From IMG/VR virus record IMGVR_UViG_2909262264_000004: a DNA stretch of 42,000 nucleotides. One strand, 5' to 3'. Position 1 is the first letter of the stretch; the number at the start of each line of letters is the position of its first letter. Source of the stretch: a virus. Taxonomy: Duplodnaviria; Heunggongvirae; Uroviricota; Caudoviricetes. The notes beneath the pieces are model-generated. The model was not told where the DNA came from, made no database searches, and saw only the letters and a list, made by a program, of their open reading frames with translations. Position numbers and translations under genes: made by a program. Positions 10,296 to 39,003 of this stretch are shown piece by piece.

Positions 10296-10559
10296 TTTGC
10301 ACGATAGTGCACAAGTTTGCACAATTTTTTTGAACGACTTTTTGTACTTCCGGCCCGCGTGGTGGCTGGATCCGTCAAGGATCCGTACGTGCACAAAAAA
10401 ACGCGTTTTTTCTACGCGCAGGTGACGGGGGAACAGCCCGCGTTTCAGGGGGTAAATAGCATTCCCTGAGCGATGTCGCAGCGACACAACAGAATGGCCA
10501 TATTTCTCACGCTGAGCGTGAAAAAGATGTGAGGGCTTTTGATTTGATGGGGTGAAAGG

Positions 10560-10600
10560 TAAGGCCGTCAAAATCGCACTGAGGCGGCGAAGAACATGCA
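10560..10600. other. Candidate cos (cohesive-end) region
   Basis: gaggcggcgaagaaca lies about 160 bp from the portal gene end and resembles P2/186 cos (GGCG.GGCGGGGAAAGCA) as recalled. A second similar string is at about 10423-10437. Weak. Confidence 0.2.
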
Positions 10601-10749
10601 GTCAACGCGGTGGGATTGCGTAAGAGCCTGACCGTCGATGATGGCAAAAAGCTGGAAGGCGTCGTGAAATTATCTGACTGATACAGGAGCTGGAGAGCCG
10701 GGGCATAAATTTTTTATGCCCCGGCGAAGCAGCAGACAAGCGAAGCGCG

Positions 10750-11796: not shown

Positions 11797-12415
11797 CAGA
11801 ACTCCATAACCGTGAAACGCTCGTTTTCTCCTTCGCCGCCAATTGGTTCGTTAATGACAGCAAGCATGGTCGCCCACGCAAGGTCGCCGTGGCTGATCCC
11901 CCTCGCGCGGTCCGTTTCGTAAGTGATAAAGCCGCCCGGTGTTTTCACCTTACGCACGGCGTTAAAGGCCGCGACCAGTTCGCGTTCGGCGCGATCGTAT
12001 TCCCACCGCCCGGCACGCATTATTTGCAGCATTTTCAGTACCAGCGACCGTTTTGATGACAGCGTGAAGGTGTACGGAATAGCAGCAGGGAAAAACCGTT
12101 TCACTATCTGATAAACAGCCTCCCCGTTCCCGCCCGTCACATCAATACCGATGTGTTCCACGTTGTAGCGACACGTGAACTCTTCAATGACTCTGGCCTG
12201 TTCTTCAAACTCCAGCCCCTGAACGCGTCGCGTCTCCACCGTTCGAAAACGGCCACCAGGAACAGCCGGAGGAACCACCACGGACACAGCGCCGCTGTCG
12301 CCGTTGCCACTGCTGCCGTTTGCGTCATACCCAATCCATACCGGACGATTTCCCATCGGGCGGGGAGCAAAAGGTTTCCAGTCTTTCCAGTCGTCGTATC
12401 CGTCAACGCCGCAGC
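11684..12415. repeat. 732-bp direct repeat, copy 1
   Basis: Identical to 15055-15786 over the stretches compared by eye. Covers the Q 5' end and the P 3' end. Confidence 0.9.
11796..12415 (-). pseudogene. Terminase large subunit fragment (C-terminal ~210 aa only)
   Basis: Identical to the C-terminus of the intact terminase at 15167-16918; the 5' part is replaced by the IS21-family element at 12416. Confidence 0.8.
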
Positions 12416-12617
12416 TGCAAAATGGCATCTAAATCGATCACGGTTTGGCATTCGAATCGATCATGATTTGGCATCCATCTCCGATCACAGTTTGGCATCA
12501 CAATCGATCACGATTTGGCATGCTTCCGATCATTGATTGGCATCCTGCCAGTCACTCCGGGAATTAACTCTTTTCACCACAGTCTTCATTGCCGTGTTTA
12601 AACCAGTGGAGACGGCA

Positions 12618-14183: not shown

Positions 14184-14199
14184 CAGAAGGAACAACAGT

Positions 14200-14955
14200 A
14201 TGAGTGATAACCTGTTAAACAAACTGACCCAACTGAAACTCCCGGCGATGGCCGGGAGCCTGATACGGCAGCGGGAAACGCCTCAGACCTACGACGAACT
14301 GTCGTTCGAGGAAAGGCTGACGCTGCTGGTTGATGACGAGCTTCTGAGCAGGGAAAACAGCCGTGTGGCACGGTTGAGAAAAAATGCCGGCCTGAAATAC
14401 CAGGCAACACCGGAAGGGCTGCGCTATCCGGCCTCAAGAGGTCTGCGGGCTGAACAGATGAGAGAACTGCTGAACGGTCACTACATAACCCACAGGAAAA
14501 ACCTGCTGATAACCGGTCCGACAGGATGTGGCAAGAGCTGGATAGCCAATGCGCTGGGCGAACAGGCATGTCGACAGAAACACAGCGTCCGGTACTGTAG
14601 AACCGGGCGATTACTGGAACAGCTGGCTCAGGGACGTGTTGATGGCAGCTGGCTGAAATATCTGAAACAGTTGCAAAAAATACAGGTTCTAATCCTGGAC
14701 GATCTGGGGCTGGAACAGTTAAGTAACGCCCAGTGTAATGACCTTCTGGAGCTCATAGAGGATCGTTACGGACAAAGCAGCACGATAGTGGTAAGCCAGT
14801 TCCCGGTAGATAAATGGCATGGTCTGATGGAAAACCCAACAACAGCAGATGCCATCCTGGACAGACTGGTACATAACTCACACAGAGTGGTCCTTCAGGG
14901 AGAGTCCCTGAGGAAAAATCCCCCGACAGTGGAAAGCAGCGAAAAAACGAGTTAA
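14200..14955 (+). CDS. istB: IS21-family ATP-binding helper IstB
   Basis: 251 aa; Walker A GPTGCGKS and Walker B LILDDLG. Confidence 0.85.
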   Translation: MSDNLLNKLTQLKLPAMAGSLIRQRETPQTYDELSFEERLTLLVDDELLSRENSRVARLRKNAGLKYQATPEGLRYPASRGLRAEQMRELLNGHYITHRKNLLITGPTGCGKSWIANALGEQACRQKHSVRYCRTGRLLEQLAQGRVDGSWLKYLKQLQKIQVLILDDLGLEQLSNAQCNDLLELIEDRYGQSSTIVVSQFPVDKWHGLMENPTTADAILDRLVHNSHRVVLQGESLRKNPPTVESSEKTS

Positions 14956-15054
14956 AAAGCGATAGAAAAAGTTAAGTTCCCGGTTGATCGAATGTATGCG
15001 AATCGCTGATCGGACTTCGATGCCAATCCGTGATCGAATAGAGCGGAATACGCA

Positions 15055-15167
15055 GTCAGGCGATAAGGACCATCAAATGTGAATGCACTGAGCGATGATT
15101 CTTTCCTGAGCGCATCAGCGAGATCAATGCGTGAACTCATGCGCACTTTTTTATTTTTTCTGCTCAT
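15055..15167 (-). pseudogene. Portal gene 5' fragment (first 38 codons)
   Basis: Same N-terminus as the portal (MSRKNKKVRMSSRIDLADALRKESSLSAFTFDGPYRLT), then reads into IS-derived sequence (ORF 14952-15167). Confidence 0.7.
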
Positions 15168-15786
15168 CAGAACTCCATAACCGTGAAACGCTCGTTTTCT
15201 CCTTCGCCGCCAATTGGTTCGTTAATGACAGCAAGCATGGTCGCCCACGCAAGGTCGCCGTGGCTGATCCCCCTCGCGCGGTCCGTTTCGTAAGTGATAA
15301 AGCCGCCCGGTGTTTTCACCTTACGCACGGCGTTAAAGGCCGCGACCAGTTCGCGTTCGGCGCGATCGTATTCCCACCGCCCGGCACGCATTATTTGCAG
15401 CATTTTCAGTACCAGCGACCGTTTTGATGACAGCGTGAAGGTGTACGGAATAGCAGCAGGGAAAAACCGTTTCACTATCTGATAAACAGCCTCCCCGTTC
15501 CCGCCCGTCACATCAATACCGATGTGTTCCACGTTGTAGCGACACGTGAACTCTTCAATGACTCTGGCCTGTTCTTCAAACTCCAGCCCCTGAACGCGTC
15601 GCGTCTCCACCGTTCGAAAACGGCCACCAGGAACAGCCGGAGGAACCACCACGGACACAGCGCCGCTGTCGCCGTTGCCACTGCTGCCGTTTGCGTCATA
15701 CCCAATCCATACCGGACGATTTCCCATCGGGCGGGGAGCAAAAGGTTTCCAGTCTTTCCAGTCGTCGTATCCGTCAACGCCGCAGC
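15055..15786. repeat. 732-bp direct repeat, copy 2
   Basis: Duplicate of 11684-12415 immediately right of the IS. Confidence 0.9.
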
Positions 15787-16918
15787 CAATCAGGATATTC
15801 AGGTTAAATGCCGATTCCCCTTCGCGGACAAACTCACACATGTAGAGATTGAGGAACTCGTCTTCGGTGTTTTCATCGCGGATTTCGTCAATATCGGTGT
15901 GTTTCCAGCCGTGATTAACCACATCTTCCAGCGTGACAATCTGCCGCCATGTCCGGTCAGGGCAGATAAGTCCGTTATGCAGCGTTTTCCAGTCCACAGA
16001 AAAACGCTGGCGTTTATGCGTGGCCTTTTTCTCGTTCCAGCGGTCGCCGTTCCAGTAGGCGTATGCCTCGTGCGTTTCGGTGGATGGCGTGGAGAAGTAG
16101 GTGCGCCGCAGTCCGCTGAGGGTTGCCATAGCGCCAGCCACCTTGCGCAGTTCAGCAAAGCGACTGACCCAGAAAAATTCATCAAAATAAAAATTGCCCG
16201 TATAGGACTGTGCCGACGCAGCAGAAGTGCCGAGAAAATGCAGCTCTGCGCCGTTGGAGAGGATGATTTTATCGCCCCCTTTCAGCTCCACATCAACTTC
16301 AGCCGCGGCCTTCTGAATAATGCTTTTAAACTGGAACGCCTGACGACGCGACGCAGACAAAAAAATCTGGTTACGCTGGTAAGGTTGCGCCACATCGTCA
16401 CGCAGCGCCATCAGCAGCGCTTCCTGTGCAAAATACCAGGTCGCCCCAATCTGTCGGGATTTCAGGATCATCCTGTTACGTATCCCGGCTTCCCTGCAAA
16501 GGGTCAGGGAGTCAAACCAGCCCCGCTGATGCCACTCCAGCCTGCTGATGATTTTTTCCCGCAGTGCGGCAATCTGTTCCGGCGTGAAATGATTTTTGAG
16601 TTTTTTCGTCCGGCCTTTCTTTCCTGTGACCGTCGCATCCGGCTGGCCATCATGCAGTTTTTTAAGCTGCCGGGTCAGCAGGTCTATTTCCTTAAAGTCA
16701 CCGCCTGTTTTATTCTGTTTTTCAGTAAGCTGGATGAGGCGCGCATCGATGGACTGCGTGACACGCTGCACGGGTGGCGTTTCATCCCACTGGTCGCGTT
16801 TTTTCCACGCATAAATCGTGTTCGGGTTTATTCCCATCAGACGTGATATTTCTGCGGGCGGATAACCCTGCCAGTAAAGTTGCCGCGCACGCTGGCGCAC
16901 AAAAGCGTCCTGAATCAT
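15167..16918 (-). CDS. P: Terminase large (ATPase) subunit (P2 gpP family)
   Basis: 583 aa, close to P2 P length; intact; divergent from the O-N-M-L operon. Confidence 0.9.
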   Translation of the reverse strand: MIQDAFVRQRARQLYWQGYPPAEISRLMGINPNTIYAWKKRDQWDETPPVQRVTQSIDARLIQLTEKQNKTGGDFKEIDLLTRQLKKLHDGQPDATVTGKKGRTKKLKNHFTPEQIAALREKIISRLEWHQRGWFDSLTLCREAGIRNRMILKSRQIGATWYFAQEALLMALRDDVAQPYQRNQIFLSASRRQAFQFKSIIQKAAAEVDVELKGGDKIILSNGAELHFLGTSAASAQSYTGNFYFDEFFWVSRFAELRKVAGAMATLSGLRRTYFSTPSTETHEAYAYWNGDRWNEKKATHKRQRFSVDWKTLHNGLICPDRTWRQIVTLEDVVNHGWKHTDIDEIRDENTEDEFLNLYMCEFVREGESAFNLNILIGCGVDGYDDWKDWKPFAPRPMGNRPVWIGYDANGSSGNGDSGAVSVVVPPAVPGGRFRTVETRRVQGLEFEEQARVIEEFTCRYNVEHIGIDVTGGNGEAVYQIVKRFFPAAIPYTFTLSSKRSLVLKMLQIMRAGRWEYDRAERELVAAFNAVRKVKTPGGFITYETDRARGISHGDLAWATMLAVINEPIGGEGENERFTVMEF

Positions 16919-17072
16919 TGCTCCCCCTGAGTAATTACAGGAAGATTACCCGCGCGCGAAACCGTTCTCCTTAACCCCCTGTTCTGGCCGTTTTCTTACA
17001 ACAAAAGCCCTTTGTATCAGCCTGTTACGCTTTGCCATCATGACTGAAGAACCAGTCAGAGGGGCAAAAACT

Positions 17073-17909
17073 ATGGCTAATGAAAAAAAGACATCCCGCA
17101 AAAAGTTTCGCGTGGCTGTCTCCGGATCAACTGTTGATGGCCGTGAAATCAGTCCGGTGCATCTGCGTGAAGCCGCCGAGAACTTCAACCCGGATGTTTA
17201 CGCTGCCCGCGTGAACGTTGAGCACTATCTCTCGCCATGCCCGTCAAGCGAATTTTCCGCAATGGGCGATGTCATTGCACTGAGTACGGAAGACATTACG
17301 GAAGGTCCGCTGGCCGGACGTACTGCGCTGTATGCAGAAATCGAACCGACCGAGCGCATGAAGCAGCTTGTCGCGGACGGCAAGAAAATCTATTCCAGTA
17401 TCGAACTGCACCCGCAGTTCTCCGTTAACGGGCGCGCCTATCTGGTCGGGCTGGCGATGACCGACACCCCGGCAAGCCTGGGCACTGAGCGCCTGAAATT
17501 CACGGCACAGCAACGTCAGGCGGTAATGACGTTCAACAGTGTCCAGGGTGAAGCGCCGCTTATCTCCGAAGCCATCGAGTCTGAAATCATCGAAATGGCA
17601 GAACAACGCCAGGAAGAAGGCACCCAGTGGTTTAACCGCGTAATGGGGATTATTGGCCGTGGCCGCAAAGCGGATGACGCCAGTTTCTCCCGTATTCAGG
17701 AAGCGGTGGAAGGCGTCGCAACGTCACAGGCCGACATTATCGACCGTTTTAATGTGCTGGAAACCCGCCATCAGCAGGACCGCCAGAAAATCACGTCACT
17801 GACCACAGAGCTGGCAGCACTGAAGGAAAAACTGCGCACGCATGACGGCGATCCGCAGAACCGCTTCACCGCAACGGGCGCAGCCTCCGACCAGCTGGCT
17901 GACTTCTGA
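17073..17909 (+). CDS. O: Capsid scaffolding protein (P2 gpO family)
   Basis: ATG at 17073 with gagggg RBS; N-terminus MANEKKTSRKKFRVAVSGSTVDGREIS resembles P2 O. Confidence 0.85.
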   Translation: MANEKKTSRKKFRVAVSGSTVDGREISPVHLREAAENFNPDVYAARVNVEHYLSPCPSSEFSAMGDVIALSTEDITEGPLAGRTALYAEIEPTERMKQLVADGKKIYSSIELHPQFSVNGRAYLVGLAMTDTPASLGTERLKFTAQQRQAVMTFNSVQGEAPLISEAIESEIIEMAEQRQEEGTQWFNRVMGIIGRGRKADDASFSRIQEAVEGVATSQADIIDRFNVLETRHQQDRQKITSLTTELAALKEKLRTHDGDPQNRFTATGAASDQLADF

Positions 17910-17932
17910 TAAGACAAAGGAGCAAATTTTTT

Positions 17933-18985
17933 ATGAATCTGGTGATGTCAGATATTACCCGCAACAAGCTGGGTTGCTATATGGCGCAGCAGGCGTCGCT
18001 TAACAATATCCCGGTATCTGCACTGGTATCGCGATTTACCGTGGAACCCGCGGTGCAGCAGCGTTTTGAAAACGCCTCAAAGGAAAGTACCGAATTTACG
18101 AAAAGAATTAACGTGATCGGCGTGACCGACCAGAAAGGCGAAAAAATCCTCCTGGATACCACAGGACCGATTGCGCGCACGAATACCAGTTATGACGGAA
18201 CAAAACGCCGTAACCCGAATAACGTGGTTGATCTGAAAAACCGCAAATACCAGTGCGAACAGGTGAACTACGACACGTTTATTTCGTATCCGCAGCTTGA
18301 TGCCTGGTCGGCACACCCTGATTTTCAGTCCCGCATCAGCGCACAGATTGCCCGACAGGTGGCGCTTGACCGCATCATGATCGGTTTCAACGGCACGTCT
18401 CACGCGGATGAGTCCAACTTCAGCACCAACAAGCTGCTTCAGGACGTTAACGTGGGCTGGCTGGAGCACATCAGAACCGACGCCAGCGAACGCGTTATGA
18501 ATGACGTGACGCTGACCTCCCGCAACATGGACAACACCGTGGCGCACGCGGGTAAGTATGCGAACGCTGATGCACTGGTACAGGACGCGCGTTCATCCCT
18601 GCTGGATGAATGGCACAAGGAAGCTGACGACCTCGTGGTGATTATGGGGCGCAACCTGTTTAACTCGCTGCGTCTGCCCGTGCTGAACAGCATCAGCGGC
18701 CAGAATCCCAATGCGGAATTACTCGCCGGGCAGCTCATCCTGTCATCGCGCACCATTGGCGGGCTGGGCGTGTTCCTTGCGCCGTTCTTCCCGGATGCAA
18801 CGATGCTTATCACCTCGTTCAACAACCTGTCGATTTACTGGCAGAAAGGTTCAATGCGTCGCCTGATGAAAGACGAGCCGGAATACAACCGCATCGCCAC
18901 CTACCAGTCCATCAATGACGCTTATGTCGTTGAAGACTATGGCAAGTGCGCGATGGTCACTGGCCTGAAGTTCGCCGACAGCTAA
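17933..18985 (+). CDS. N: Major capsid protein (P2 gpN family)
   Basis: 350 aa; aaggag RBS; FTVEP..., MIGFNGT and VEDYG blocks as in P2 N. Confidence 0.9.
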   Translation: MNLVMSDITRNKLGCYMAQQASLNNIPVSALVSRFTVEPAVQQRFENASKESTEFTKRINVIGVTDQKGEKILLDTTGPIARTNTSYDGTKRRNPNNVVDLKNRKYQCEQVNYDTFISYPQLDAWSAHPDFQSRISAQIARQVALDRIMIGFNGTSHADESNFSTNKLLQDVNVGWLEHIRTDASERVMNDVTLTSRNMDNTVAHAGKYANADALVQDARSSLLDEWHKEADDLVVIMGRNLFNSLRLPVLNSISGQNPNAELLAGQLILSSRTIGGLGVFLAPFFPDATMLITSFNNLSIYWQKGSMRRLMKDEPEYNRIATYQSINDAYVVEDYGKCAMVTGLKFADS

Positions 18986-19030
18986 TCAACTCACGGCGGG
19001 CATCATGCCCGCCTGTAACGGAGAGAAAAA

Positions 19031-19831
19031 ATGATTACTCCTGCACAACAACACTGGCAGAACGTGATGGCACAGCGCGCAGGCCGGGCGAATGAAGGCG
19101 TGGACCACGCCGCGCGTACCGCGCATGAAGAGGTGCTGTATCGTCTGCGTCTGGCACAGGCCCGGCTTAAGGGCGTACAGGCCAGAAGCGCGAAAGCCGC
19201 CATCAAAAAAGAGTTGTTGCCGGATTTTTCCGGCTGGATTGAGGGAACGCTGGAGGCTGACGGCGGGCAGCAGGATGAAGTGATTGCCACGCTGATGGTG
19301 TGGGCGATTGACTGCGGCGATCTTCCGCTTGCGTTGCGTATTGGTGCGTATGTGGTCCGTCATAACCTCATTATGCCGGATAACTTTGGCCGTACTGCTG
19401 CCACGGTACTGACCGAAGAAATCTGCAACCCGGTACTGACGCAGGCCGGGACGGATGCTGACGCGGATTTGTCCGCCTTTATCGAACCACTGGACACCCT
19501 CCGGGAGATTGTCACAGACCAGGACATGCCGGACGAAGTGCGCGCCAAATTATGCAAGGCGTGCGCCTTTGCCCGTCGTGGTCTGACCGATGCAGACAAC
19601 ATGGCCTTATCACTGAAGCTGCTGCGCGAAGCGATGCACCTGAACCCGAACGCAGGTGTGAAACGCGAGATTGCAACCCTTTCCCGCGCCCTGAAAAAAG
19701 CCGATTCCGCAGCCGCACCAGAAGACGCCAGCACACCGCAGGCGCAGGACGAAAGCAGCAAAAGTAAAAAGACAACGCGGAAGCCTGCAACACGAAAAAC
19801 CACCGCGACGCAGAAGGCGAAGCGCGGTTAA
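19031..19831 (+). CDS. M: Terminase small/endonuclease subunit (P2 gpM family)
   Basis: 266 aa; DMPDEVRAKL and AGVKREI blocks; basic Lys/Arg-rich C-terminus as in P2 M. Confidence 0.85.
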   Translation: MITPAQQHWQNVMAQRAGRANEGVDHAARTAHEEVLYRLRLAQARLKGVQARSAKAAIKKELLPDFSGWIEGTLEADGGQQDEVIATLMVWAIDCGDLPLALRIGAYVVRHNLIMPDNFGRTAATVLTEEICNPVLTQAGTDADADLSAFIEPLDTLREIVTDQDMPDEVRAKLCKACAFARRGLTDADNMALSLKLLREAMHLNPNAGVKREIATLSRALKKADSAAAPEDASTPQAQDESSKSKKTTRKPATRKTTATQKAKRG

Positions 19832-25329: not shown

Positions 25330-26604
25330 ATGAGTACCACAACACGAAAATTTAAAACCGTTATCACCGATACAGGTGCAAAAAAATTAGCTCAGGCAGC
25401 CGCGCCAGATGGTAAGCCTGTCCGCCTGACTCATATGGCCGTGGGCGACGGTGGCGGCACGTTGCCCACACCAGACAGTAAGCAGACCCGTCTGGTGCAT
25501 GAGGTGTGGCGACATACTGTTAATCGCGTCATCCTGGACGCAACACATCAGAACCGCATTATTGCGGAGCTGGTTATACCTCCTGAAACGGGCGGATTCT
25601 GGATCCGGGAAATTGGTGTATTTGATGAGCACGGCGATTTAATCGCGGTGGGCAATACTGCCGAAAGTTACAAGCCAACCGTTGCCGAGGGGTCCGGACG
25701 TGCACAAACATTTCGCACCATTCTGACCGTATCCAGCACTGCCAGCGTGGCGCTTACCGTGGATAACACCATGGTGATGGCCACAGTGGATTACGTGGAT
25801 GACAAACTGAAAGAGCATGAACAGTCACGACGTCACCCGGATGCCTCGCTGACCGCAAAAGGCTTTGTTCAACTCAGTAGCGCCACTAACAGCGATTCTG
25901 AAACGCTGGCCGCAACGCCGAAAGCGGTTAAGGCCGCGTATGACCTGGCTAACGGAAAATATACCGCTCAGGACGCCACGACGGCACGAAAAGGGATAGT
26001 CCAGCTCAGCAGTGCAACCAACAGCACGTCTGAAACGCTGGCAGCGACACCAAAAGCGGTTAAGGCGGTAATGGATGAAACGAACAAGAAAGCCCCATTA
26101 AACAGCCCGGCACTGACCGGAACGCCAACAACACCAACTGCACGACAGGGAACGAATAATACCCAAATCGCAAGCACGGCTTTCGTTATGGCCGCGATTG
26201 CCGCACTTGTAGATTCGTCACCTGACGCACTGAACACGCTGAACGAGCTGGCGGCGGCGCTGGGCAACGACCCGAATTTTGCGACCACCATGACTAACGC
26301 GCTTGCGGGTAAGCAACCGAAAGATGCCACCCTGACAGCGCTGGCCGGGCTTGCTACTGCGGCAGACAGGTTTCCGTATTTTACGGGGAATGATGTTGCC
26401 AGTCTGGCAACCCTGACAGAAGTCGGGCGGGATATTCTTGCGAAATCGACCGTTGCCGCTGTTATCGAATACCTCGGTTTACAGGAAACGGTAAATCAGG
26501 CTTCTGGCGCATTACAGAAAAACCAGAACGGCGCAGATATTCCGGTGGACTTACTTTTGAAAACGACTCAATCCTTGCCTGTCGCGCATATAGCGCATGG
26601 CTGA
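25330..26604 (+). CDS. H: Tail fibre protein, proximal/constant part (P2 gpH family), ends prematurely
   Basis: 424 aa with repeated QLSSATNS.SETLAATPKAVKA units as in P2 H. Stop at 26602-26604 lies inside the shared block, and the distal fibre sequence continues in another frame. Confidence 0.8.
   Translation: MSTTTRKFKTVITDTGAKKLAQAAAPDGKPVRLTHMAVGDGGGTLPTPDSKQTRLVHEVWRHTVNRVILDATHQNRIIAELVIPPETGGFWIREIGVFDEHGDLIAVGNTAESYKPTVAEGSGRAQTFRTILTVSSTASVALTVDNTMVMATVDYVDDKLKEHEQSRRHPDASLTAKGFVQLSSATNSDSETLAATPKAVKAAYDLANGKYTAQDATTARKGIVQLSSATNSTSETLAATPKAVKAVMDETNKKAPLNSPALTGTPTTPTARQGTNNTQIASTAFVMAAIAALVDSSPDALNTLNELAAALGNDPNFATTMTNALAGKQPKDATLTALAGLATAADRFPYFTGNDVASLATLTEVGRDILAKSTVAAVIEYLGLQETVNQASGALQKNQNGADIPVDLLLKTTQSLPVAHIAHG
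26462..26487. promoter_or_regulatory. gix/pix-like 26-bp invertase crossover site (left)
   Basis: ttatcgaatacctcggtttacaggaa is the reverse complement, with 2 mismatches, of the site at 29571-29596. Resembles Gin/Pin/Cin sites as recalled. Confidence 0.6.
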
Positions 26605-26879
26605 ATATTGGTGGCGATAGTCAGGTCTGGACAACTGCGCAATTTATTTCGTGGCTGGAGAGTCAGGGGGCATTTAACCATCCTTACTGGATGTGCAAAG
26701 GCTCATGGGCTTATGCAAATAATAAGGTCATTACAGATACAGGTTGCGGAAATATTTGTCTTGCAGGTGCTGTGGTGGAAGTTATTGGCACTCGCGGCGC
26801 AATGACCATACGCGTTACTACGCCGAGTACGTCCAGCGGCGGCGGAATTACTAACGCTCAATTCACTTATATTAATCAT
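26577..26879. repeat. 303-bp inverted repeat, left copy (shared tail-fibre block)
   Basis: Matches the reverse complement of 29181-29483 over all stretches compared; encodes ACRAYSAWLNIGG...FTYINH in frame 0. Confidence 0.85.
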
Positions 26880-27437
26880 GGTGATGCTTACGCTCCTGGC
26901 TGGCGACGAGACTACAATACGAAAAACCAGCAGCCTGCATTTGCTTTAGGGCAAACAGGAAGCACTGTCGGAAATGATAAAGCTGTTGGCTGGAACTGGA
27001 ATAGCGGGGTCTATAACGCAAATATTGGTGGCGCATCGACATTAATCCTCCACTTCAATATGAATACGGGGAGCAGCCCTGCTGTACAGTTCCGCGTGAA
27101 TTACAGAAATGGCGGTATCTTTTATCGTTCAGCGCGTGATGGTTATGGCTTTGAAGCTGACTGGTCAGAGTTTTACACCACAACCCGCAAACCCTCTGCG
27201 GGAGATGTTGGTGCATATACGCAGGCAGAATGTAACTCAAGGTTTATTACAGGTATTCGCTTGGGCGGTCTGTCATCTGTTCAGACATGGAATGGTCCCG
27301 GCTGGTCTGACAGGTCAGGTTATGTCGTTACGGGTTCAGTTAACGGAAACCGTGATGAATTAATTGATACAACTCAGGTCATGTATTGTCTGGTATTAAT
27401 GTTCAGGATACAGGGTCCAACTCTGCCGATAATATAG
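26691..27437 (+). CDS. Tail fibre distal (variable) region, currently expressed orientation
   Basis: Frame-0 reading frame is open from 26394 to 27437 (first ATG 26691). Encodes SGGLTFENDSILA... typical of H distal regions, in a different frame from H. Confidence 0.6.
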   Translation: MCKGSWAYANNKVITDTGCGNICLAGAVVEVIGTRGAMTIRVTTPSTSSGGGITNAQFTYINHGDAYAPGWRRDYNTKNQQPAFALGQTGSTVGNDKAVGWNWNSGVYNANIGGASTLILHFNMNTGSSPAVQFRVNYRNGGIFYRSARDGYGFEADWSEFYTTTRKPSAGDVGAYTQAECNSRFITGIRLGGLSSVQTWNGPGWSDRSGYVVTGSVNGNRDELIDTTQVMYCLVLMFRIQGPTLPII

Positions 27438-27506
27438 CGGGCGTTTATTACAGACCCGTTCAAAAGTATATAAATGGCACCTGGTATAATGTAGCGAGCG
27501 TTTAAT

Positions 27507-27890
27507 ATGATGCACTTAAAGAACATAAAAGCGGGTAACGCTAAAACACTGGAACAGTATGAGTTAACAAAGAAACACGGAGTTATCTGGCTTTACTCTG
27601 AGGACGAAAAAAACTGGTATGAGGAACAAAAGAATTTCCAGCCAGACACAATAAAGATTGTTTACGATGCAAATAATATTATTGTCGCCATCACTAAAGA
27701 TGCCTCCACGCTTAACCCTGAAGGTTTTAGTGTCGTTGAGGTTCCCGATATTACAGCCAACCGCCGCGCTGATGATTCAGGAAAGTGGATGTTTAAGGAT
27801 GGAGCTGTAGTTAAACGGATTTATACGGCAAACGAGCAACAACAACAGGCCGAATCGCAAAAGGCTGGGCATCATTTCCGACGAGAATAA
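27507..27890 (+). CDS. Tail fibre assembly chaperone (Tfa, P2 gpG-like); C-terminus out of frame
   Basis: 127 aa; N-terminal ~120 aa identical to the minus-strand copy. The +1 frame continues to about 27982 with a Tfa-like end (..VTFPEQPE). Confidence 0.7.
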
Positions 27891-28012
27891 ACAAAAATTA
27901 ACCGAGTGGATGCTCTATGCGCAGAAAGTCGAATCTACAGACACCTCCAGCCTGCCAGTAACATTTCCCGAACAACCTGAATGAGACAAGGCCCGATAGC
28001 GGGCCTTAATTT

Positions 28013-28615
28013 TTATTCAGGCTTTTGTGGCCATTCAGGATTTGCCGTATCCACACGGCTGACCAGAACACTGTAGCGTTCCCATGCTTCCAGTCGTGTA
28101 CGTTCCTCATCTGTTGCCATATTCAGCCTGACAGCGCGTTCCAGTGGCTGAATAACGCTTTCTGCTTCGGAAAGTAACGCAGCCTTTTGCGATTCGGCCT
28201 GTTGTTGTTGCTCGTTTGCCGTATAAATCCGTTTAACTACAGCTCCATCCTTAAACATCCACTTTCCTGAATCATCAGCGCGGCGGTTGGCTGTAATATC
28301 GGGAACCTCAACGACACTAAAACCTTCAGGGTTAAGCGTGGAGGCATCTTTAGTGATGGCGACAATAATATTATTTGCATCGTAAACAATCTTTATTGTG
28401 TCTGGCTGAAAGTTTTTCACTTCCTCATACCAGTTTTTTTCGTCCTCAGAGTAAAGCCAGATAACTCCGTGTTTCTTTGTTAACTCATACTGTTCCAGTG
28501 TTTTAGCGTTACCCGCTTTTATGTTCTTTAAGTGCATCATATTAAATTGTTTCGTTAGCTGGTATTGCTCTTTTGTTTTAGGGTTGCCAGCAGTAATGTT
28601 TTTTAAGTGCATCAT
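28013..28615 (-). CDS. Alternative tail fibre assembly chaperone (Tfa')
   Basis: 200-aa ORF; likely start at the second [10 protein letters not shown] (28540). First 25 codons are a diverged in-frame duplicate of the N-terminus. Ends ..EWPQKPE. Confidence 0.7.
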
Positions 28616-28648
28616 CGTTAAATACTCCCCGCGTTATACCACGTCCCA

Positions 28649-29182
28649 TTAATGCAATACCAGACAATACATGACCTGAGTTGTATCAATTAATTCATCA
28701 CGGTTTCCGTTAACTGAACCCGTAACGACATAACCTGACCTGTCAGACCAGCCGGGACCATTCCATGTCTGAACAGATGACAGACCGCCCAAGCGAATAA
28801 CTTGCGAGCCGCAAAGCCAGTTCCCGTTATTATCCATGTACGCCTGACCATCGGTGCCATTGGCTGTCCTTGAGTTATTAATCATGTAGATGCCAAATTG
28901 CTTATTTCCCAGACCGCCAATCATAAATTTGCGGTCGGCGTGATTCTGGCGAAGCAACGCCTGAGCGCTATCAGTGTTAACTATATTTTTCCCAAAGATA
29001 GCGTTGTTATCGCGCATCTGAATCCACATACCATTACTGCTGTTAATAGCAAAACGGTCTGAAAGTGTCTCCCCTGAAACATTAAGACCACGCCCCATCG
29101 AAACAGCGCCAGTAGCGTTATTAATCCATAATGGCCTTAATCCGTTATAAGTCCCCATGTTGTCACCGGAGTTTGTCAACAT
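28649..29182 (-). CDS. Alternative tail fibre distal segment (Sv'), silent orientation
   Basis: 177 aa; C-terminal ~47 aa identical to the plus-strand distal segment (IRLGGLSSVQTWNGPGW...). Out of frame (+1) with the shared block at 29181. Confidence 0.6.
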   Translation of the reverse strand: MLTNSGDNMGTYNGLRPLWINNATGAVSMGRGLNVSGETLSDRFAINSSNGMWIQMRDNNAIFGKNIVNTDSAQALLRQNHADRKFMIGGLGNKQFGIYMINNSRTANGTDGQAYMDNNGNWLCGSQVIRLGGLSSVQTWNGPGWSDRSGYVVTGSVNGNRDELIDTTQVMYCLVLH

Positions 29183-29483
29183 GATTAATATAAGTGAATT
29201 GAGCGTTAGTAATTCCGCCGCCGCTGGACGTACTCGGCGTAGTAACGCGTATGGTCATTGCGCCGCGAGTGCCAATAACTTCCACCACAGCACCTGCAAG
29301 ACAAATATTTCCGCAACCTGTATCTGTAATGACCTTATTATTTGCATAAGCCCATGAGCCTTTGCACATCCAGTAAGGATGGTTAAATGCCCCCTGACTC
29401 TCCAGCCACGAAATAAATTGCGCAGTTGTCCAGACCTGACTATCGCCACCAATATTCAGCCATGCGCTATATGCGCGACAGGC
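29181..29483. repeat. 303-bp inverted repeat, right copy
   Basis: Reverse complement of 26577-26879. Confidence 0.85.
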
Positions 29484-29570
29484 CCCAATATTTTTGGTGA
29501 AGGTATCTTTTCCCGGAATATCTGCGCCGTTCTGGTTTTTCTGTAATGCGCCAGAAGCCTTGTTTACCGT

Positions 29571-29596
29571 TTCCTGTAAACCGAGGTTTTAGATAA
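29571..29596. promoter_or_regulatory. gix/pix-like 26-bp invertase crossover site (right)
   Basis: ttcctgtaaaccgaggttttagataa, about 55 bp upstream of the invertase gene. Confidence 0.6.
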
Positions 29597-29650
29597 TGGC
29601 CGTTTCCGGCCTGCATGGCATGATTTGCGCTTTTGGACGGGAGATTCAGC

Positions 29651-30238
29651 GTGCTGATTGGCTATGTAAGGGTATCAACAAATGACCAGAATACAGACCT
29701 GCAACGAAACGCTCTTGTTTGTGCAGGATGTGAACAAATATTTGAAGATAAATTAAGCGGGACAAAGACAGACCGACCGGGATTAAAACGCGCTTTAAAG
29801 CGCCTTCAAAAAGGTGACACGCTGGTTGTCTGGAAACTGGATCGCCTCGGGCGAAGCATGAAACATCTGATTTCTCTCGTCGGGGAACTACGGGAGCGAG
29901 GAATTAATTTTCGCAGTCTGACCGACAGCATAGATACATCTTCTCCAATGGGGCGTTTTTTCTTCCACGTGATGGGTGCCCTGGCTGAAATGGAACGTGA
30001 ATTAATTGTTGAACGTACACTGGCCGGACTGGCGGCAGCACGCGCACGGGGGCGCACAGGCGGACGTCGACCGAAGCTGACAAAAGAACAGCATGAGCAA
30101 ATAGCAAGGCTGATCAAAAACGGGCACGACAGAAAACAACTGGCAATAATTTACGGCATTGGTATATCGACGATTTATCGTTACCACCCCGCAGGAGAAT
30201 CAAGCGGAACAATAGAGAAGAGTCAGGAAACAAAATAA
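29651..30238 (+). CDS. pin: Serine DNA invertase (Pin/Gin/Hin family)
   Basis: GTG start after gggag; N-terminus LIGYVRVSTNDQ with catalytic Ser, C-terminal HTH; near-identical N-terminus to e14 Pin as recalled. Confidence 0.9.
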   Translation: MLIGYVRVSTNDQNTDLQRNALVCAGCEQIFEDKLSGTKTDRPGLKRALKRLQKGDTLVVWKLDRLGRSMKHLISLVGELRERGINFRSLTDSIDTSSPMGRFFFHVMGALAEMERELIVERTLAGLAAARARGRTGGRRPKLTKEQHEQIARLIKNGHDRKQLAIIYGIGISTIYRYHPAGESSGTIEKSQETK

Positions 30239-30272
30239 CCGCTAATCTGACCATTAGCGGTTTTTGTGTTAA
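30239..30272. terminator. Bidirectional intrinsic terminator between convergent pin and U
   Basis: ccgctaat-ctgacc-attagcgg hairpin with A-run on one side and T-run on the other. Confidence 0.5.
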
Positions 30273-30273
30273 A

Positions 30274-30768
30274 TCAGAACAGCCCTTTAACGGAGCTGGC
30301 CGCGCTGTTAAGGGATGATGTGACCTTATCTTTGAAGCCGGACAGCATATCACTGAACGATGAGGATTGCAGGCGCTCCCGCAAATCCTCATCACAGCGT
30401 TCAAGAGTCAGTGAAAATTCTATCTTTTTCGCCTTACCGTAGCGATCAAACTCGGAGCGGGTCGTATTCGTTTCAGTCAGTACATACATGCCGTAAATCT
30501 GCCCGACACCATCAATCAGAGGCCAGGGGCGTCCTGTATATGCCTGCGTGGTCAGCAGCGAAAGCGACACTTCGCCACCTGTAATTTCAGGATAAAGCAC
30601 GCCAGAAAGCACGATGCGATCATCACCTGCACCGATATACTGCCAGCTTGCTGAGCGATTTACGCGCTCATTTTTCACATGCCGCCAGCTTTTGTTTTGC
30701 TGTAACTGCTGATGCGGCAGTGTGCGCAGCTCAAAAACAAACATGCCGTAGATCATCATCATGACCAT
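30274..30768 (-). CDS. U: Tail protein U (P2 gpU family)
   Basis: 164 aa; MMM.YGMFVFELRT..NKSWRHV..RVNRS resembles P2 U. Confidence 0.85.
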   Translation of the reverse strand: MVMMMIYGMFVFELRTLPHQQLQQNKSWRHVKNERVNRSASWQYIGAGDDRIVLSGVLYPEITGGEVSLSLLTTQAYTGRPWPLIDGVGQIYGMYVLTETNTTRSEFDRYGKAKKIEFSLTLERCDEDLRERLQSSSFSDMLSGFKDKVTSSLNSAASSVKGLF

Positions 30769-30774
30769 GACTCC

Positions 30775-33582
30775 TCAATCTTTATCGTAAAAACTGCCAC
30801 GTCCGGCACGGGCGCGCCGTTCCACCTCTGCCCTGACCATTTCACCGACCAGTTTCGCCAGTTCGCGGGGATTCTGCGTAACAACGTTATGCAGATGAAC
30901 ATGAATTTCACCGCCAAATCCGGAGACAGCAGGCTCCCGATTACGGGAAGCTGCAGGAACTGATGCCACTGGCGATCGTATGGCCTCCGCCACCGGGCGG
31001 GAGCTGGCCGCAACAACAGGGACCAGCGCCGGAGGCAGCGGAGCCGGGACCACGGGTGTGATATTAATTGCGGGGGCAGGCTTACTGGCCTGCGCAATCT
31101 TCCGCTCCTGCCACTCCCCACGAACGGCAAGTGCGCGGGGCAGGTTCTTAAAGACAATATCGCCGGGGCCAATGCGTTTTTTCGTCTCATCAACCAGCTT
31201 ACCTGTGTTATCAGCAATTTTGCTGAGTCTGCGCAGCGTACCGGTATTGCTGTCTGTGAGCGGTTTATTGTCTTTGGGGTTATCACCTCCGGTGCCATTG
31301 CCATTTTCCACAGGCTTCGGCGGATTGATTTTCGCCAGGTCCCCCTGAAGCAAGGCAACCTTGTCCTGAAGAATGGCCGCACGCTGTGCGTCTTCGATTT
31401 TCTTGCGCGCCCTTTCCGCTTCATCCGGAAGCACACCAAGCTTTTCAAGTATCCACGCCAGCGTATCCAGCAACATTTTTGCAGGTGTCAGAACAAGTTG
31501 TAACGCACCGCCAAGAACGTTACCGAATATCTCGCCAGCACTGGTACATTTATCCAGAGTTTCCTTGCTGGACTCCATCGGTGACAGCAGCGATTTAAAC
31601 CAGTTAAACACCTGGCTGATCCCACTCCCGATTGCGTCAAAAACAGGACCAAACCGTTCAAAGGTTTCGCGCAACGGGGTCAGCCTTTCCATAATCCCGC
31701 TGAACACCCCGGCAAAAAATGCCCTGATGGGATCCCAGTATTTCCAGATAAGAACGGCAGCTCCGGCAAGCGCAGCCACGATAAGACCAACCGGACTGAA
31801 CAACGCCCCGATAGCGCCTCCCAGTAAAGAAACGGAACCCGTCACCATTCCCCATAGTGCTGGCAGAACCCTGACAGCATTCATTGATCCGGTCAGGAGG
31901 GAAAAACCAAGACGCAGTTTTGCCAGCGGGCCAGCAAGCACACCAATAGCCAGCGACAACGAGCCAACCGTTGCAGTCATTGCCAGCAGTGCACCGCCTG
32001 CAATCAGTAGCTGGCGCGTCAGTGCGGGATGGGCCTGCGCCAGCGCCGTCACCTTTGATACCACACGCGTGAGCCACTGCGTGACAGAACGCAGCGGACC
32101 GTCAATCAGATCTGCAATGCGGATGCGCAACCCTTCCCATGCACTGCTGAGTGATTTCAGATCGCCGTCAAGGTTGTTGGCCATAACCTTTGCCGTGCGT
32201 TCAGCCTCACCGCGCGCGCCTTCAAGTTCTTTTCTCAGTTTGGGTAAGGAGCCGTCACCTGCCGCATCAACGAGGGCCATAAATGATGTGAAAGCCTCTT
32301 CTCCGGCAATGTCCTTAAAGAACGATACCCGGTCAACTTCCCCGTATTTGCGGGTAGCTTTATAAAGGTCAGCCAGCACATCCTCCATCGGGCGCATTTT
32401 GCCCCCGGCATCCGAGACAGACACGCCAAGCTCTTTCAGCGCCTCTGCTGCCGCCTTTGGCGGTGATGCCAGACGAGCCAGGCTGGCACGCATTGCCGTA
32501 CCAGCATCACTCCCCCTGATACCCATATTCGCCAGCACGCCCGCCATCGCTGCGGCCTGCTCCAGCGATATTCCCAGCTTACCCGCCACCGGACCTGCAT
32601 ATTTCATGGTTTCACCCAGTGCGCGAAGGTCAGTGTTGGTACGGGTAAACGCTGCGGTGAGTGTGTCGCCGACCCGGTCCATCTGGTCAGCAGAAAGACC
32701 GAACTGCGTCAGAATATTTGAGCCAATATCCGCCGTCTCACCGAGGTCCATACCGCCAGCCGTTGCCATGCTCAGTACGCCAGGGAGCGCAGCCTGAATG
32801 GCCTGTGGTGTAAAGCCAGCCATTGCAAGAAATGCCTGTCCACTGGCGGCATCGCCTGCGGTGAACTGCGTTTCAGAGCCAAGTTTTAACGCCTGCTCAC
32901 GCAGCGCCTTAAACTGCGGGCTGTTCTGGTCGATTCGCGTCAGTGCCTGAACGCGGGACATCTCTTTGCCGAACCCGATCGCAGGCTGCAAAAAACGCCC
33001 GGCAGCATAGCCGCCCGCCGCTGCCGCACCAATTGCCAGCGCACCACCTGTTTTCAGTTTTCCCGCTGTTTCCTGCGCGCGCGAATACCGCTCACGCGCC
33101 CGTGTTACACGCGCAAGCGCCTGCCGTTCGCGTTCAAGCTGGTTGTTGTACTGTTCGGTGCGTCTGATGGCCTGCTGGATGGTGTTATCGCTGCCTGTCA
33201 GGGAAATGCCGTGGCGTTTCAGCTCTCCGCCAAGCTCCCGCATTTTCTGAATTTCCCGTGTGCGCGATTCATTCAGGCGTTCAAGCCGGGTGCTTAACTG
33301 CTGCATCAGCTTTTGTTGTTTTTCGCTGAGCACTGTACCCGTGCGTTGTAACTGATTAAGGGCGTTAAGCTGGCGTCGTGCTTTCACGATGCCCGCATCC
33401 GCTTTACTGACAGCGTCACGGGCGCGCTCAAATGATCGCGCCTGACGCTCGAGATTTTTGATCGCCCCCTGCGTTCGCTGGATGGAGTCACCAAACTGCC
33501 CCATCAGGCGGCGGGCGTTTTCGGCAGGCCGGGTCAGCCTGTCAACGGCGCTGAAAGCGACCCGGATATCAAGAGTCTTCAT
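30775..33582 (-). CDS. T: Tail tape measure protein (P2 gpT family)
   Basis: ORF to 33618 (GTG); ATG at 33582 overlaps the E' stop. Ala/Gly-rich with a transmembrane-like middle region. Confidence 0.85.
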   Translation of the reverse strand: MKTLDIRVAFSAVDRLTRPAENARRLMGQFGDSIQRTQGAIKNLERQARSFERARDAVSKADAGIVKARRQLNALNQLQRTGTVLSEKQQKLMQQLSTRLERLNESRTREIQKMRELGGELKRHGISLTGSDNTIQQAIRRTEQYNNQLERERQALARVTRARERYSRAQETAGKLKTGGALAIGAAAAGGYAAGRFLQPAIGFGKEMSRVQALTRIDQNSPQFKALREQALKLGSETQFTAGDAASGQAFLAMAGFTPQAIQAALPGVLSMATAGGMDLGETADIGSNILTQFGLSADQMDRVGDTLTAAFTRTNTDLRALGETMKYAGPVAGKLGISLEQAAAMAGVLANMGIRGSDAGTAMRASLARLASPPKAAAEALKELGVSVSDAGGKMRPMEDVLADLYKATRKYGEVDRVSFFKDIAGEEAFTSFMALVDAAGDGSLPKLRKELEGARGEAERTAKVMANNLDGDLKSLSSAWEGLRIRIADLIDGPLRSVTQWLTRVVSKVTALAQAHPALTRQLLIAGGALLAMTATVGSLSLAIGVLAGPLAKLRLGFSLLTGSMNAVRVLPALWGMVTGSVSLLGGAIGALFSPVGLIVAALAGAAVLIWKYWDPIRAFFAGVFSGIMERLTPLRETFERFGPVFDAIGSGISQVFNWFKSLLSPMESSKETLDKCTSAGEIFGNVLGGALQLVLTPAKMLLDTLAWILEKLGVLPDEAERARKKIEDAQRAAILQDKVALLQGDLAKINPPKPVENGNGTGGDNPKDNKPLTDSNTGTLRRLSKIADNTGKLVDETKKRIGPGDIVFKNLPRALAVRGEWQERKIAQASKPAPAINITPVVPAPLPPALVPVVAASSRPVAEAIRSPVASVPAASRNREPAVSGFGGEIHVHLHNVVTQNPRELAKLVGEMVRAEVERRARAGRGSFYDKD

Positions 33583-38169: not shown

Positions 38170-39003
38170 ATGGTCATGAATAATAAGCTAAAGGTAATTG
38201 AGTTAAATAGTCTTGATCTGTTTCGTAAAGAATTACTAACTACTATAAAGCCAGAGAAAGTAGAGAAATTACTTAGATGGTATCTTCAATCATATGGCGG
38301 TGTTAATTTCAAGTTCGGTTATGACAGACCAATTTTTAGAGCGCGAAAGTGCCCAAATGAATGCGGATATAATAACATCAGTGAGATATATCCCCCTCCA
38401 CCAGAAAAATGTAAAATAGGCCGAATGAATGATGATGGACAAGCTATCTTCTATGGCGCTTATAGTATCGGAACAGCTTTAGCCGAAATTAATGCAAAAG
38501 AAGGGGATTATGTTCACATAGCTCACTTTAAGATGCCGGAAAATTCAGAGTCTGGAATGCGATGTTTTGCTATCGGTGAGGTCTTTAATGTGTATCACGG
38601 TGTAAATACAATTTCAATTGAAGTGTTTAATGAAATTCGCGACATCATTAGCAGAATTGGTAAGGACGACATCCGAGCTTTGCTATCATATTTGTATATG
38701 GATGCCCTTTCTGCTGAGTTGCTTAATAGTATCAATGCCCATGAGGTAAATTATATTTACTCAAGAATTTTTTGCCGTCTTCTTCTTGATAAATACCCTG
38801 ATGTTGATGGTCTTATTTATCCTAGCGCTAAAATAAAAGGGGCCTCAAATATCGCTTTGCGCACAGAAACAGTTAAATCGAGAATGCATTTAGTTGCTAA
38901 TCTTGTGTTTAAAGTAAATAAAATTTATCCATATGGAATAGTAGATTTCAGTATAGTAAAACAAGCCAAAGGACATACATCAGATGGGCGCATCGTTTGG
39001 TGA
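38170..39003 (+). CDS. RES-domain protein (NAD+-targeting toxin family)
   Basis: 277 aa (ATG at 38176 has the better RBS). GRMNDDGQAIFYGAYSIGTALAE and GLIYPSAKIKGASNIAL fit the Arg...Glu...Ser RES signature as recalled. No antitoxin-like ORF adjacent. Confidence 0.55.
   Translation: MVMNNKLKVIELNSLDLFRKELLTTIKPEKVEKLLRWYLQSYGGVNFKFGYDRPIFRARKCPNECGYNNISEIYPPPPEKCKIGRMNDDGQAIFYGAYSIGTALAEINAKEGDYVHIAHFKMPENSESGMRCFAIGEVFNVYHGVNTISIEVFNEIRDIISRIGKDDIRALLSYLYMDALSAELLNSINAHEVNYIYSRIFCRLLLDKYPDVDGLIYPSAKIKGASNIALRTETVKSRMHLVANLVFKVNKIYPYGIVDFSIVKQAKGHTSDGRIVW

Follow-up and report, generated by a model that had tools for sequence, protein, structure and literature searches.

In the virus record IMGVR_UViG_2909262264_000004, the tail fibre gene H enters an invertible DNA segment, and a full-length fibre can be read from the deposited window (the whole 42-kb stretch of DNA analysed) in neither orientation of that segment. 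This raises the question of whether the broken reading frames belong to the phage or to the sequence as it was deposited. The breaks arise from 12 hops of the deposited sequence between the two orientations, which most likely stem from an assembly error rather than from biology, and we consider it probable (roughly 0.7) that the deposited sequence is a chimeric consensus of a culture of mixed orientation.

An invertible tail fibre cassette of the Gin/Pin type

The cassette is an ordinary Mu/P1-type invertible tail fibre cassette in a P2-family prophage of E. coli, and the underlying system is the already known Gin/Pin switch, a textbook host-range switch of a common E. coli prophage. The window contains exactly two gix-type sites in inverted orientation (none being expected by chance), at the positions where the preliminary description had placed gix-like sites (Table 1); the reference sequence for Mu gix was taken at the annotated G-segment boundaries of Mu. 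Neither an additional gix-like site (at three mismatches or fewer) nor a further core AAACCNNGGTTT was found in the window, and none of the 12 joins described below resembles a gix half-site. A multi-site shufflon, such as Min of p15B or the three-repeat module of an EPEC P2-like phage, was thereby ruled out, as were further crossover sites for Pin, whether internal or quasi. With respect to membership of the Gin/Hin/Cin/Pin group, the invertase carries a resolvase catalytic domain and a C-terminal HTH, and the two inverted 26-bp sites have identical central dinucleotides. The protein shares 86% identity with Mu Gin over 181 aa; the matching part contains the sequence YVRVSTNDQ, which we take to be the catalytic-serine motif. 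Additionally, 177 positions match Mu gin within the first 180 nt of the gene, the 5' region in which the Fis-dependent recombinational enhancer is presumably located.

The resemblance to the G segment of Mu (Gin; S/U and S'/U') encompasses the serine invertase, the two inverted 26-bp gix sites (23–25 of 26 bases identical to those of Mu), a segment of ~3 kb with two alternative fibre C-terminal parts that face one another, each with a Tfa/U-type chaperone gene of its own (chimeric on the left in the record), the position of the crossover site inside the fibre gene, and a B-type arm that is Mu S-like. Conversely, the host phage is of the P2 family (P88-like), the invertase is located between the cassette and an inverted tail-tube and tape-measure module, and the arms are scrambled. 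Long inverted repeats inside the crossover sites, forming part of the fibre gene, liken the record to the P1 C segment (Cin; repeats of 0.6 kb), the e14 P segment (Pin) and the EPEC P2-like 'shufflon'. The latter possesses three inverted repeats, with coexisting orientations in clonal cultures (PMC4272514), whereas the record has only two crossover sites and is not multi-site.

The gene order corresponds to that of P88-like (Xuanwuvirus) cassettes, as represented by E. coli W284, strain 88-19539 and phage P88, namely V, W, J, I, H, tfa, tfa, Sv' and invertase, followed by U and T on the opposite strand, and the prophage shares with these relatives a chromosomal site adjoining flk. In W284, the constant part of H reads into the variable part to give a full-length fibre of 700 aa, tfa1 and tfa2 are intact, and Sv' is open from the gix site. 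Every base of window positions 26486–31740 is contained in the W284 cassette, although in the record this identical material is arranged as 13 pieces of alternating strand. The closely related prophages UTME-13 and 2017-19-1CC, at the same locus, are in opposite orientations that differ by a single clean flip with both joins within the gix repeat; the pair provides indirect evidence that inversion occurs, and the pattern left by this genuine flip is unlike that of the record. UTME-6, another record of the cassette, has a garbled centre annotated as frameshifted tfa genes, a parallel that favours the consensus explanation given below.

Broken reading frames in the deposited sequence

The ORF of H (25330–26604) comprises 424 aa and stops at 26604, while positions 26394–27437 are open in the −1 frame, in agreement with the preliminary description, which had the distal fibre open in another frame. 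A B-type patch of 31 nt (SGGLTFENDSILA) sits inside the A-type fibre, and because it replaces an A-type patch of 29 nt, the sequence 3' of it is shifted to the −1 frame with respect to H. The break had been attributed to a phase problem caused by four extra nucleotides in the 58-bp stretch relative to P2 H; however, this stretch contains no indel relative to the intact H of W284 and UTME-6. The proposed alignment of H to intact relatives for placing the indels instead gave, as the sole length difference in this part of H, the +2 nt of the left patch, which identifies the 31-nt B-type patch as the cause.

Table 1. Features of the cassette in window coordinates, with their correspondence to the cassette of E. 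coli W284
Feature	Position	Strand	Remarks
Constant N-terminal part of tail fibre gene H, 377 codons, upstream of crossover site	25330-26461	+	Single base differs from W284 H (window 26337)
gixL, left crossover site TTATCGAATACCTCGGTTTACAGGAA	26462-26487	+	Central dinucleotide TC; 23/26 bases as in Mu gix
A-type fibre, 58 bp, in frame with H (…TVNQASGALQKNQNGADIP)	26488-26545	+	Identical to intact W284 H, indel-free
Tract T1, 31-nt B-type (Mu S-like) patch	26546-26576	+	Reverse complement of W284 Sv' 5618-5648; joins TCCGG (26541-26545), GCCTG (26577-26581)
A-type distal fibre (CRAYSAW…DELIDTTQ), −1 frame relative to H start	26577-27378	+	Exact tile, W284 H 2746-3547; Pfam gp37_C
Tract T2, B-type fibre C-terminal end (out of frame) and first 119 codons of tfa2 (from 27507)	27379-27867	+	Reverse complement of W284 4335-4823; joins TCAGG (27374-27378), GGCTG (27863-27867)
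tfa1 3' end and intergenic spacer	27868-28012	+	W284 4023-4167
tfa2, intact tail fibre assembly gene, 175 codons	28013-28540	-	100% identical to W284 tfa2; Pfam Caudo_TAP
Tract T3, A-type fibre C-terminal region and first 23 codons of tfa1, reverse complement	28547-28799	-	Reverse complement of W284 3423-3674; joins TTAAA, AATAC, CCTGA, GAATA
B-type fibre middle (MLTNSGDN…CGSQVI), original place	28800-29184	-	Exact, W284 4941-5325
Tract T4, second, inverted copy of A-type 58 bp, 29-nt patch and 308-bp block; B-type N-terminal part replaced	29185-29560	-	Reverse complement of W284 2669-3044; joins CATGA (29180-29184), AGCCT (29556-29560)
gixR, right crossover site TTATCTAAAACCTCGGTTTACAGGAA	29571-29596	-	Central dinucleotide TC; 25/26 bases as in Mu gix
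Gin/Pin-type serine DNA invertase, 195 aa	29651-30238	+	Pfam Resolvase (E 1.5e-50) and HTH_7; DNA 100% identical to W284

When the segment is flipped in silico, the product of 521 aa terminates (...TYINHVDKLR*) five codons past the shared block, the next segment being in the +1 frame, exactly as had been anticipated. The inverted repeats had likewise been described accurately: the near-identical 58-bp stretches, together with gix, form an 84-nt inverted repeat at 95% identity (26462–26545/29513–29596), the non-homologous patches that follow measure 31 nt on the left and 29 nt on the right (29484–29512), and the block reported as 303 bp measures 308 nt at 100% identity (26577–26884/29176–29483), the lower figure omitting a 5-nt overlap. 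Further inverted repeats of 147 nt (99%) and 367 nt (98%) are present. Since the inner repeats are absent from W284, they are by-products of the mosaic.

Additional breaks are observed beyond the patch. The C-terminal ends of the A- and B-type fibres are out of frame (27379 onward; 28661–28674), and T3 is interrupted at the latter position by a 14-nt B-type patch, with a gain of 1 nt (W284 4810–4828 inside). Two Caudo_TAP-type genes face one another, of which the left is a tfa2/tfa1 chimera whose ORF (27507–27890) is truncated to 127 aa, as the 3' end of tfa1 does not continue the frame of the tfa2 part before it; T2 also holds a tfa1-type patch as an exact tile (27627–27649). The right gene is the intact tfa2, the open frame of which extends to 28615 because a 25-codon 5' fragment of tfa1 is joined to it in frame. 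The out-of-frame fibre ends, the truncated left tfa and the tfa fragment on the right tfa ORF had been missed in the preliminary description.

It is conceivable that the split is functional, with a programmed −1 frameshift at G AAA AAC (26517–26523) joining H to the distal fibre: this near-slippery heptamer is located upstream of the patch, and the distal frame is indeed −1 and open across the site. However, the right arm also contains this heptamer, as do the intact H genes of W284, UTME-6 and 88-19539, where the frame is continuous; furthermore, the fibre falls out of frame again at 27379, ahead of the conserved C-terminal end, and no relative has the split arrangement. Related phages of this kind, for which the preliminary description had allowed, are lacking among 5,426 complete E. 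coli genomes. The continuous frames of the intact relatives and the second break thus rule out a frameshift at this heptamer, a reading with next to no probability.

A mosaic of both orientations

Window positions 26486–31740, which include the 3.1-kb segment and 2.1 kb beyond it, are composed of 13 exact tiles of the W284 cassette with alternating strand and 0 mismatches, and the break points are identical with the second parent, strain 88-19539. Both inversion isomers are thus represented within the sequence of the record. The 12 switch points delimit four exchanged tracts (T1–T4), and it is these joins that disrupt the two fibres together with one Tfa chaperone gene. In ten short hops, the joined isomer coordinates are only −3 to +16 nt apart, while two hops in the homologous stretch of tfa1 and tfa2 have an offset of −59 nt, tracking the gene homology. 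At the joins (join sequences being, for example, GATATTCCGGTGGACTTAC and ACAACTCAGGTCATGTATTG), the shared stretch is exactly 5 nt long in 10 of the 12, and 19 and 11 nt long at the two tfa1/tfa2 joins. Near the diagonal, the numbers of shared runs with lengths of 3, 4, 5, 6 and 7 nt are 997, 250, 80, 13 and 10, respectively; finding all ten joins at 5 nt is therefore unremarkable under a hard minimum of 5 nt (p about 0.08), as opposed to p about 4e-7 if 4-nt runs were usable. Such a sharp 5-nt cut-off looks like a software parameter.

The preliminary description had proposed gene conversion between the copies. The frame breaks are genuine features of the deposited sequence and do derive from blocks of one arm residing in the other, but they do not represent one conversion event, and a stepwise order is impossible. 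The source of T1 is within the stretch overwritten by T4, whose own source includes the stretch overwritten by T1, so that T1 needs a B-type patch erased by T4 and T4 an A-type patch erased by T1; T2 and T3 stand in an identical relation. No series of conversions within a single lineage can therefore yield the sequence, and both intact isomers were needed as templates simultaneously. Rescue by reciprocal inversion would demand that the ends of later tracts again fall within these 5-nt joins. A gradual degradation of the fibre genes of a cryptic prophage, through stepwise gene conversion or illegitimate recombination of one arm with the other, is accordingly ruled out on the order of events in the tile map, and we regard it as very improbable, even though blocks of one arm are found in the other, three near-perfect inverted repeats are present, and prophages do decay, as illustrated by the relative VTB96777v, whose fibre is cut short by a deletion of 2 nt. 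Homologous conversion in E. coli requires identity far in excess of 5 nt. Moreover, all tiles are still 100% identical to W284, which leaves no time for decay, and reading frames are of full length in the other prophage genes examined.

Origin of the mosaic

Neither the complete cassette nor the left join region has a match in the 5,426 complete E. coli genomes. Similarly, four join sequences are absent from IMG/VR (where a control parental 27-mer gave 96 matches), the left-patch pattern was not found in GTDB representatives, none of the 12 joins is present in the 104 related loci fetched, and exact protein look-ups of the three chimeric ORFs returned none on record. Natural mosaic fibres common to other phages were ruled out by these absences of the joins.

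A single event in vivo would circumvent the ordering contradiction, as both arms would be intact templates during one pass. Under this scenario, a replication run would have changed template some 12 times, passing from arm to arm or from one sister chromosome to another of opposite orientation, at 5-nt microhomologies (FoSTeS/MMBIR-like), leaving the prophage with dead fibres. Microhomology is present at all joins, the mirrored coordinates of the hops would fit arms juxtaposed in a fold-back, and the remainder of the cassette region is clean relative to the relatives (99.9%, gap-free, over 11.7 kb). However, four or five switches have been described for such events, a number exceeded by the twelve required here; the sharp 5-nt minimum, with no joins of 2–4 nt or 6–10 nt, is unexpected for annealing-driven switching; in duplex DNA, 1.3 to 2.9 kb separate the arms; and the joins are found in no other genome searched. 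We consider such an event unlikely. That the mosaic exists in the cell as the product of one replication or repair event with about 12 switches at 5-nt microhomologies, amounting to a chromothripsis-like scrambling in a bacterium with a site-specific inversion switch at its centre, is slightly more doubtful still. Were it borne out by the reads, the mosaic would constitute an unusually complex template-switching event for bacteria.

The caveat raised in the preliminary description itself, i.e. a consensus built from mixed orientations, provides the best fit. The organism most likely carries an intact Gin/Pin-type cassette in a P88-like (Xuanwuvirus, P2-family) prophage, identical to that of W284, with the layout H-constant, gix, A-type fibre end and tfa1, facing tfa2 and the B-type fibre end, then gix and invertase; this cassette would work like Mu G or P1 C. 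Both orientations would have been present in the culture sequenced, and the consensus would have hopped 12 times between the isomers at short identical runs, generating a mosaic that matches no molecule. Coexistence of both orientations in clonal E. coli cultures is documented for cassettes of P2-like prophages (PMC4272514). The hopping probably took place in software, for instance in a consensus step that makes a separate choice of variant at every variable region along an alignment; among the pipelines in wide use, at least one derives its consensus by independent variant choice per variable region of an assembly alignment, heterogeneity being assumed to be nil (PMC8442456). An alignment-based step is required by this explanation, as short-read assemblers based on De Bruijn graphs are unable to produce joins of 5 nt. 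Counting against the explanation, global alignments reproduced few of the hops: no more than 3 of the 12 hop points were mutually aligned in MAFFT alignments of the two isomers (five modes), and only 3 to 5 were on the optimal path in Needleman-Wunsch alignments (five cost schemes); those recovered by the global alignments are in homologous stretches.

The biological weight of a chimeric consensus is very little. In practical terms, a phase-variable segment would have given rise to a clean-looking sequence that does not exist, with no noisy bases and with every piece 100% identical to real DNA, which annotation pipelines would take for pseudogenes or a 'defective prophage'. The combination of exact alternating-strand tiles, mirrored coordinates and constant join length offers a signature by which public assemblies may be screened. 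The IS-terminase join of the window is spanned by no match in the complete E. coli genomes. Separately, and outside the scope of the chimeric-consensus explanation, a second odd structure is present in the window in the form of a 732-bp perfect direct repeat around an IS.

The fibre cassette and its intact relatives

The cassette is carried by a P88-type prophage (Xuanwuvirus, P2 family) which adjoins flk in an E. coli chromosome. The left 25 kb of the window has matches at ~96% in Citrobacter phage Shae_phiSM, Escherichia phage PhiR44_2 and P88; for the right 11.7 kb, which extends from the tail module as far as flk, several E. coli strains show 99.9% identity. Genes V, W, J, I and H are followed by the 3.1-kb segment, a serine invertase, and then U and the tape-measure gene on the opposite strand. 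Additionally, the prophage contains a ParM-type actin-like segregation gene (8353-9312; Pfam StbA_N, ParM_N), and a gene annotated as plasmid segregation protein ParM is also carried by P88-like phage records. In the interval from the prophage end to flk (38170-39003), genes for a Hok/Gef toxin, a RES-family NAD+ phosphorylase and TagO are annotated in the relatives, all within the stretch that is 99.9% identical between them and the window.

The gix-type sites proposed in the preliminary description (26462-26487 and 29571-29596) were confirmed as the only two in the window, where none is expected by chance; they match Mu gix at 23/26 and 25/26 bases, respectively, both with TC as the central dinucleotide. 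The nested structure described inside these sites was likewise recovered: an inverted repeat of 84 nt at 95% identity, made up of gix and the 58 bp, two patches with lengths of 31 and 29 nt, and an inverted repeat of 308 nt at 100% identity. As had been stated, H stops at 26604 (424 aa) while an open -1 frame spans 26394-27437, and in silico flipping lets H read through the right patch and the repeat block to end after 521 aa (...TYINHVDKLR, stop). The four extra nucleotides attributed to the 58-bp stretch are, however, not there: no extra bases were found relative to intact relatives, and the length difference is the +2 nt of the left patch.

The underlying element belongs with the Gin/Hin/Cin/Pin inversion systems and with fibre cassettes of the Mu G / P1 C type by the features that define them: a recombinase, two inverted 26-bp sites with the same core, a crossover site within the fibre gene and, probably, two facing modules of fibre end plus tail-fibre assembly gene (tfa). 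The system is already known, and the one deviation is that the reading frame is not continuous, in this record only.

The same prophage, at the same site and with a continuous 700-aa H, is present in E. coli W284, UTME-6 and 88-19539. Left patch aside, 25330-27378 differs from W284 by two single bases only (26337 and 26485), and the H region departs from W284 again past 27378. In W284, the A-type fibre end (...GADIPGKDTFTKNIGACRAYSAW...) is followed by tfa1, and the Mu S-like B-type end on the other strand (...GDILSGGLTFENDSILAWIRNTDW...) by tfa2. The left patch of the window encodes SGGLTFENDSILA and thus represents B-type sequence inside an A-type fibre, out of frame with the preceding sequence and in frame with the following one. 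Further upstream, H contains a tandem pair of 96-nt units (25839-26066; 75% identity, 132-nt spacing; SLTAKGFVQLSSATNS..ETLAATPKAVKA), of which P88 H appears to have one more copy since its constant part is longer.

A mosaic of both cassette orientations

Greedy exact tiling of the window onto the W284 cassette covered 26486-31740 completely, with 0 mismatches, by 13 tiles of alternating strand (Table), and identical break points were recovered when 88-19539 served as parent. Both arms of the window carry A-type pieces (the 58 bp, the 308-bp block and a 123-bp stretch) and the 5' part of tfa2, while the B-type counterparts of the duplicated A-type pieces and the middle of tfa1 are missing; the small patches and C-terminal ends are exchanged between the arms. 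The H frame breaks at 26546 and again at 27379, and this second break, together with the intact relatives, contradicts a programmed frameshift. The right-arm fibre has breaks at 29184 and 28661-28674. Of the two tfa genes, the left one is a tfa2/tfa1 chimera cut short to 127 aa; the right one, tfa2, is intact and preceded in frame by 25 tfa1 codons.

Features of the window and tiles of the W284 cassette (locus L001) that make up the mosaic
Feature	Window	W284	Strand	Remarks
Serine invertase	29651-30238			86% identity to Mu Gin
T1	26546-26576			B-type sequence, left arm
T2	27379-27867			B-type sequence, left arm
T3	28547-28799			A-type sequence, right arm
T4	29185-29560			A-type sequence, right arm
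732-bp perfect direct repeat	11684-12415 and 15055-15786			flanks IS
IS21-family element	12416-15054			istA 12537-14183, istB 13957-14955
Tile 1		2657-2716	+
Tile 2		5648-5613	-
Tile 3		2751-3547	+
Tile 4		4823-4576	-
Tile 5		3726-3748	+
Tile 6		4552-4335	-
Tile 7		4023-4701	+
Tile 8		3674-3561	-
Tile 9		4810-4828	+
Tile 10		3542-3423	-
Tile 11		4941-5325	+
Tile 12		3044-2669	-
Tile 13		5692 onward	+

At 10 of the 12 joins, exactly 5 nt are common to both parents (TCCGG, GCCTG, TCAGG, GGCTG, TTAAA, AATAC, CCTGA, GAATA, CATGA and AGCCT), and the other two, in the homologous stretch of tfa1 and tfa2, have 19 and 11 nt in common. The ten short hops link positions that lie -3 to +16 nt apart in the two isomers (the segment being flipped between the gix centres), while the two tfa hops are offset by -59 nt, tracking gene homology. 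Within that offset band, runs common to the two isomers number 997 at 3 nt, 250 at 4, 80 at 5, 13 at 6 and 10 at 7; ten joins all of 5 nt have p of about 0.08 with a hard minimum of 5, and about 4e-7 if 4-nt runs were usable, and are thus expected only under a hard five-nucleotide minimum. No further crossover site was found in the window, and the 12 joins bear no resemblance to a gix half-site.

Among 5,426 complete E. coli genomes, neither the split arrangement nor the left join was matched, the best matches having the 29-nt A-type patch. Similarly, four join sequences gave no hit in IMG/VR (96 loci for a parental control 27-mer), the left-patch pattern was not found in GTDB representative genomes, none of the 12 joins occurred in the 104 related loci fetched, where the parental sides are common, and the three chimeric proteins had no exact record. 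The prophages of UTME-13 (L006, 2115-4788) and 2017-19-1CC (L007) are closely related, occupy the same site next to flk and were deposited with the cassette in opposite orientations. They differ by a single clean flip, joined at both ends within the gix repeat. Genuine inversion among these prophages is unlike the mosaic of the window, and the pair is a useful positive control for true inversion. In another relative, VTB96777v (L004), a 2-nt deletion at about 2312-2317 shortens the tail-fibre gene to 525 aa (661 aa in 2017-19-1CC) and leaves a 413-nt gap without annotation ahead of tfa; this may reflect either an error in sequencing or a true frameshift.

Origin of the mosaic

Gene conversion between the copies, as suggested in the preliminary description, is contradicted as a gradual process by the order of the exchanged tracts (T1-T4). 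The source of T1 lies within the stretch replaced by T4, and that of T4 includes the stretch replaced by T1; the sources of T2 and T3 are mutually replaced in the same manner. The sequence thus cannot be obtained by successive conversions in one lineage, and were reciprocal inversions added to conversion, later tracts would have to end within the same 5-nt joins. Since each tile must come from an intact template, both arms, or both isomers, must have been intact simultaneously. Alternatively, a single real event might have switched template between the arms about 12 times; this is unlikely, given so many switches and so sharp a cut-off at 5 nt.

In the most likely reading, the record is a chimeric consensus drawn from a culture in which both orientations were present, and the anomaly most probably does not belong to the organism itself. 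For P2-like prophage cassettes, clonal E. coli cultures have been shown to contain the two orientations side by side (PMC4272514). Furthermore, some consensus methods work on an alignment of several assemblies, divide it into invariant and variable regions and pick the variant of each variable region independently, heterogeneity being assumed absent (PMC8442456). Given both isomers, such a step would produce long error-free tiles from either, which meet in short invariant stretches at almost identical coordinates; we infer the use of this or a comparable tool for the record. The hop points were not reproduced from isomer alignments: 3/12 were mutually aligned by MAFFT, and 3 to 5/12 lay on an optimal Needleman-Wunsch path. 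In UTME-6 (L002, NZ_CP169023), the cassette centre (3872-4430) is riddled with small indels and mismatches when compared with W284, and both tfa genes are given as frameshifted in the RefSeq annotation. This centre looks like a noisy consensus of mixed-orientation reads, indicating that the locus is error-prone in assemblies.

The IS21-family element and its flanking repeat

The direct repeat that flanks the IS21-family element is made up of 620 nt from the 3' end of the terminase gene and the first 113 nt of the portal gene, and consequently terminase (15167-16918) and portal (10750-11796) are each still present at full length, with an additional C-terminal terminase fragment at 11796-12428. 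Target duplications of the IS21 family are a few bp, so that the repeat is not accounted for by insertion of the element. The join between IS and terminase was found in no complete E. coli genome, and the repeat may represent a second assembly problem or a real duplication.
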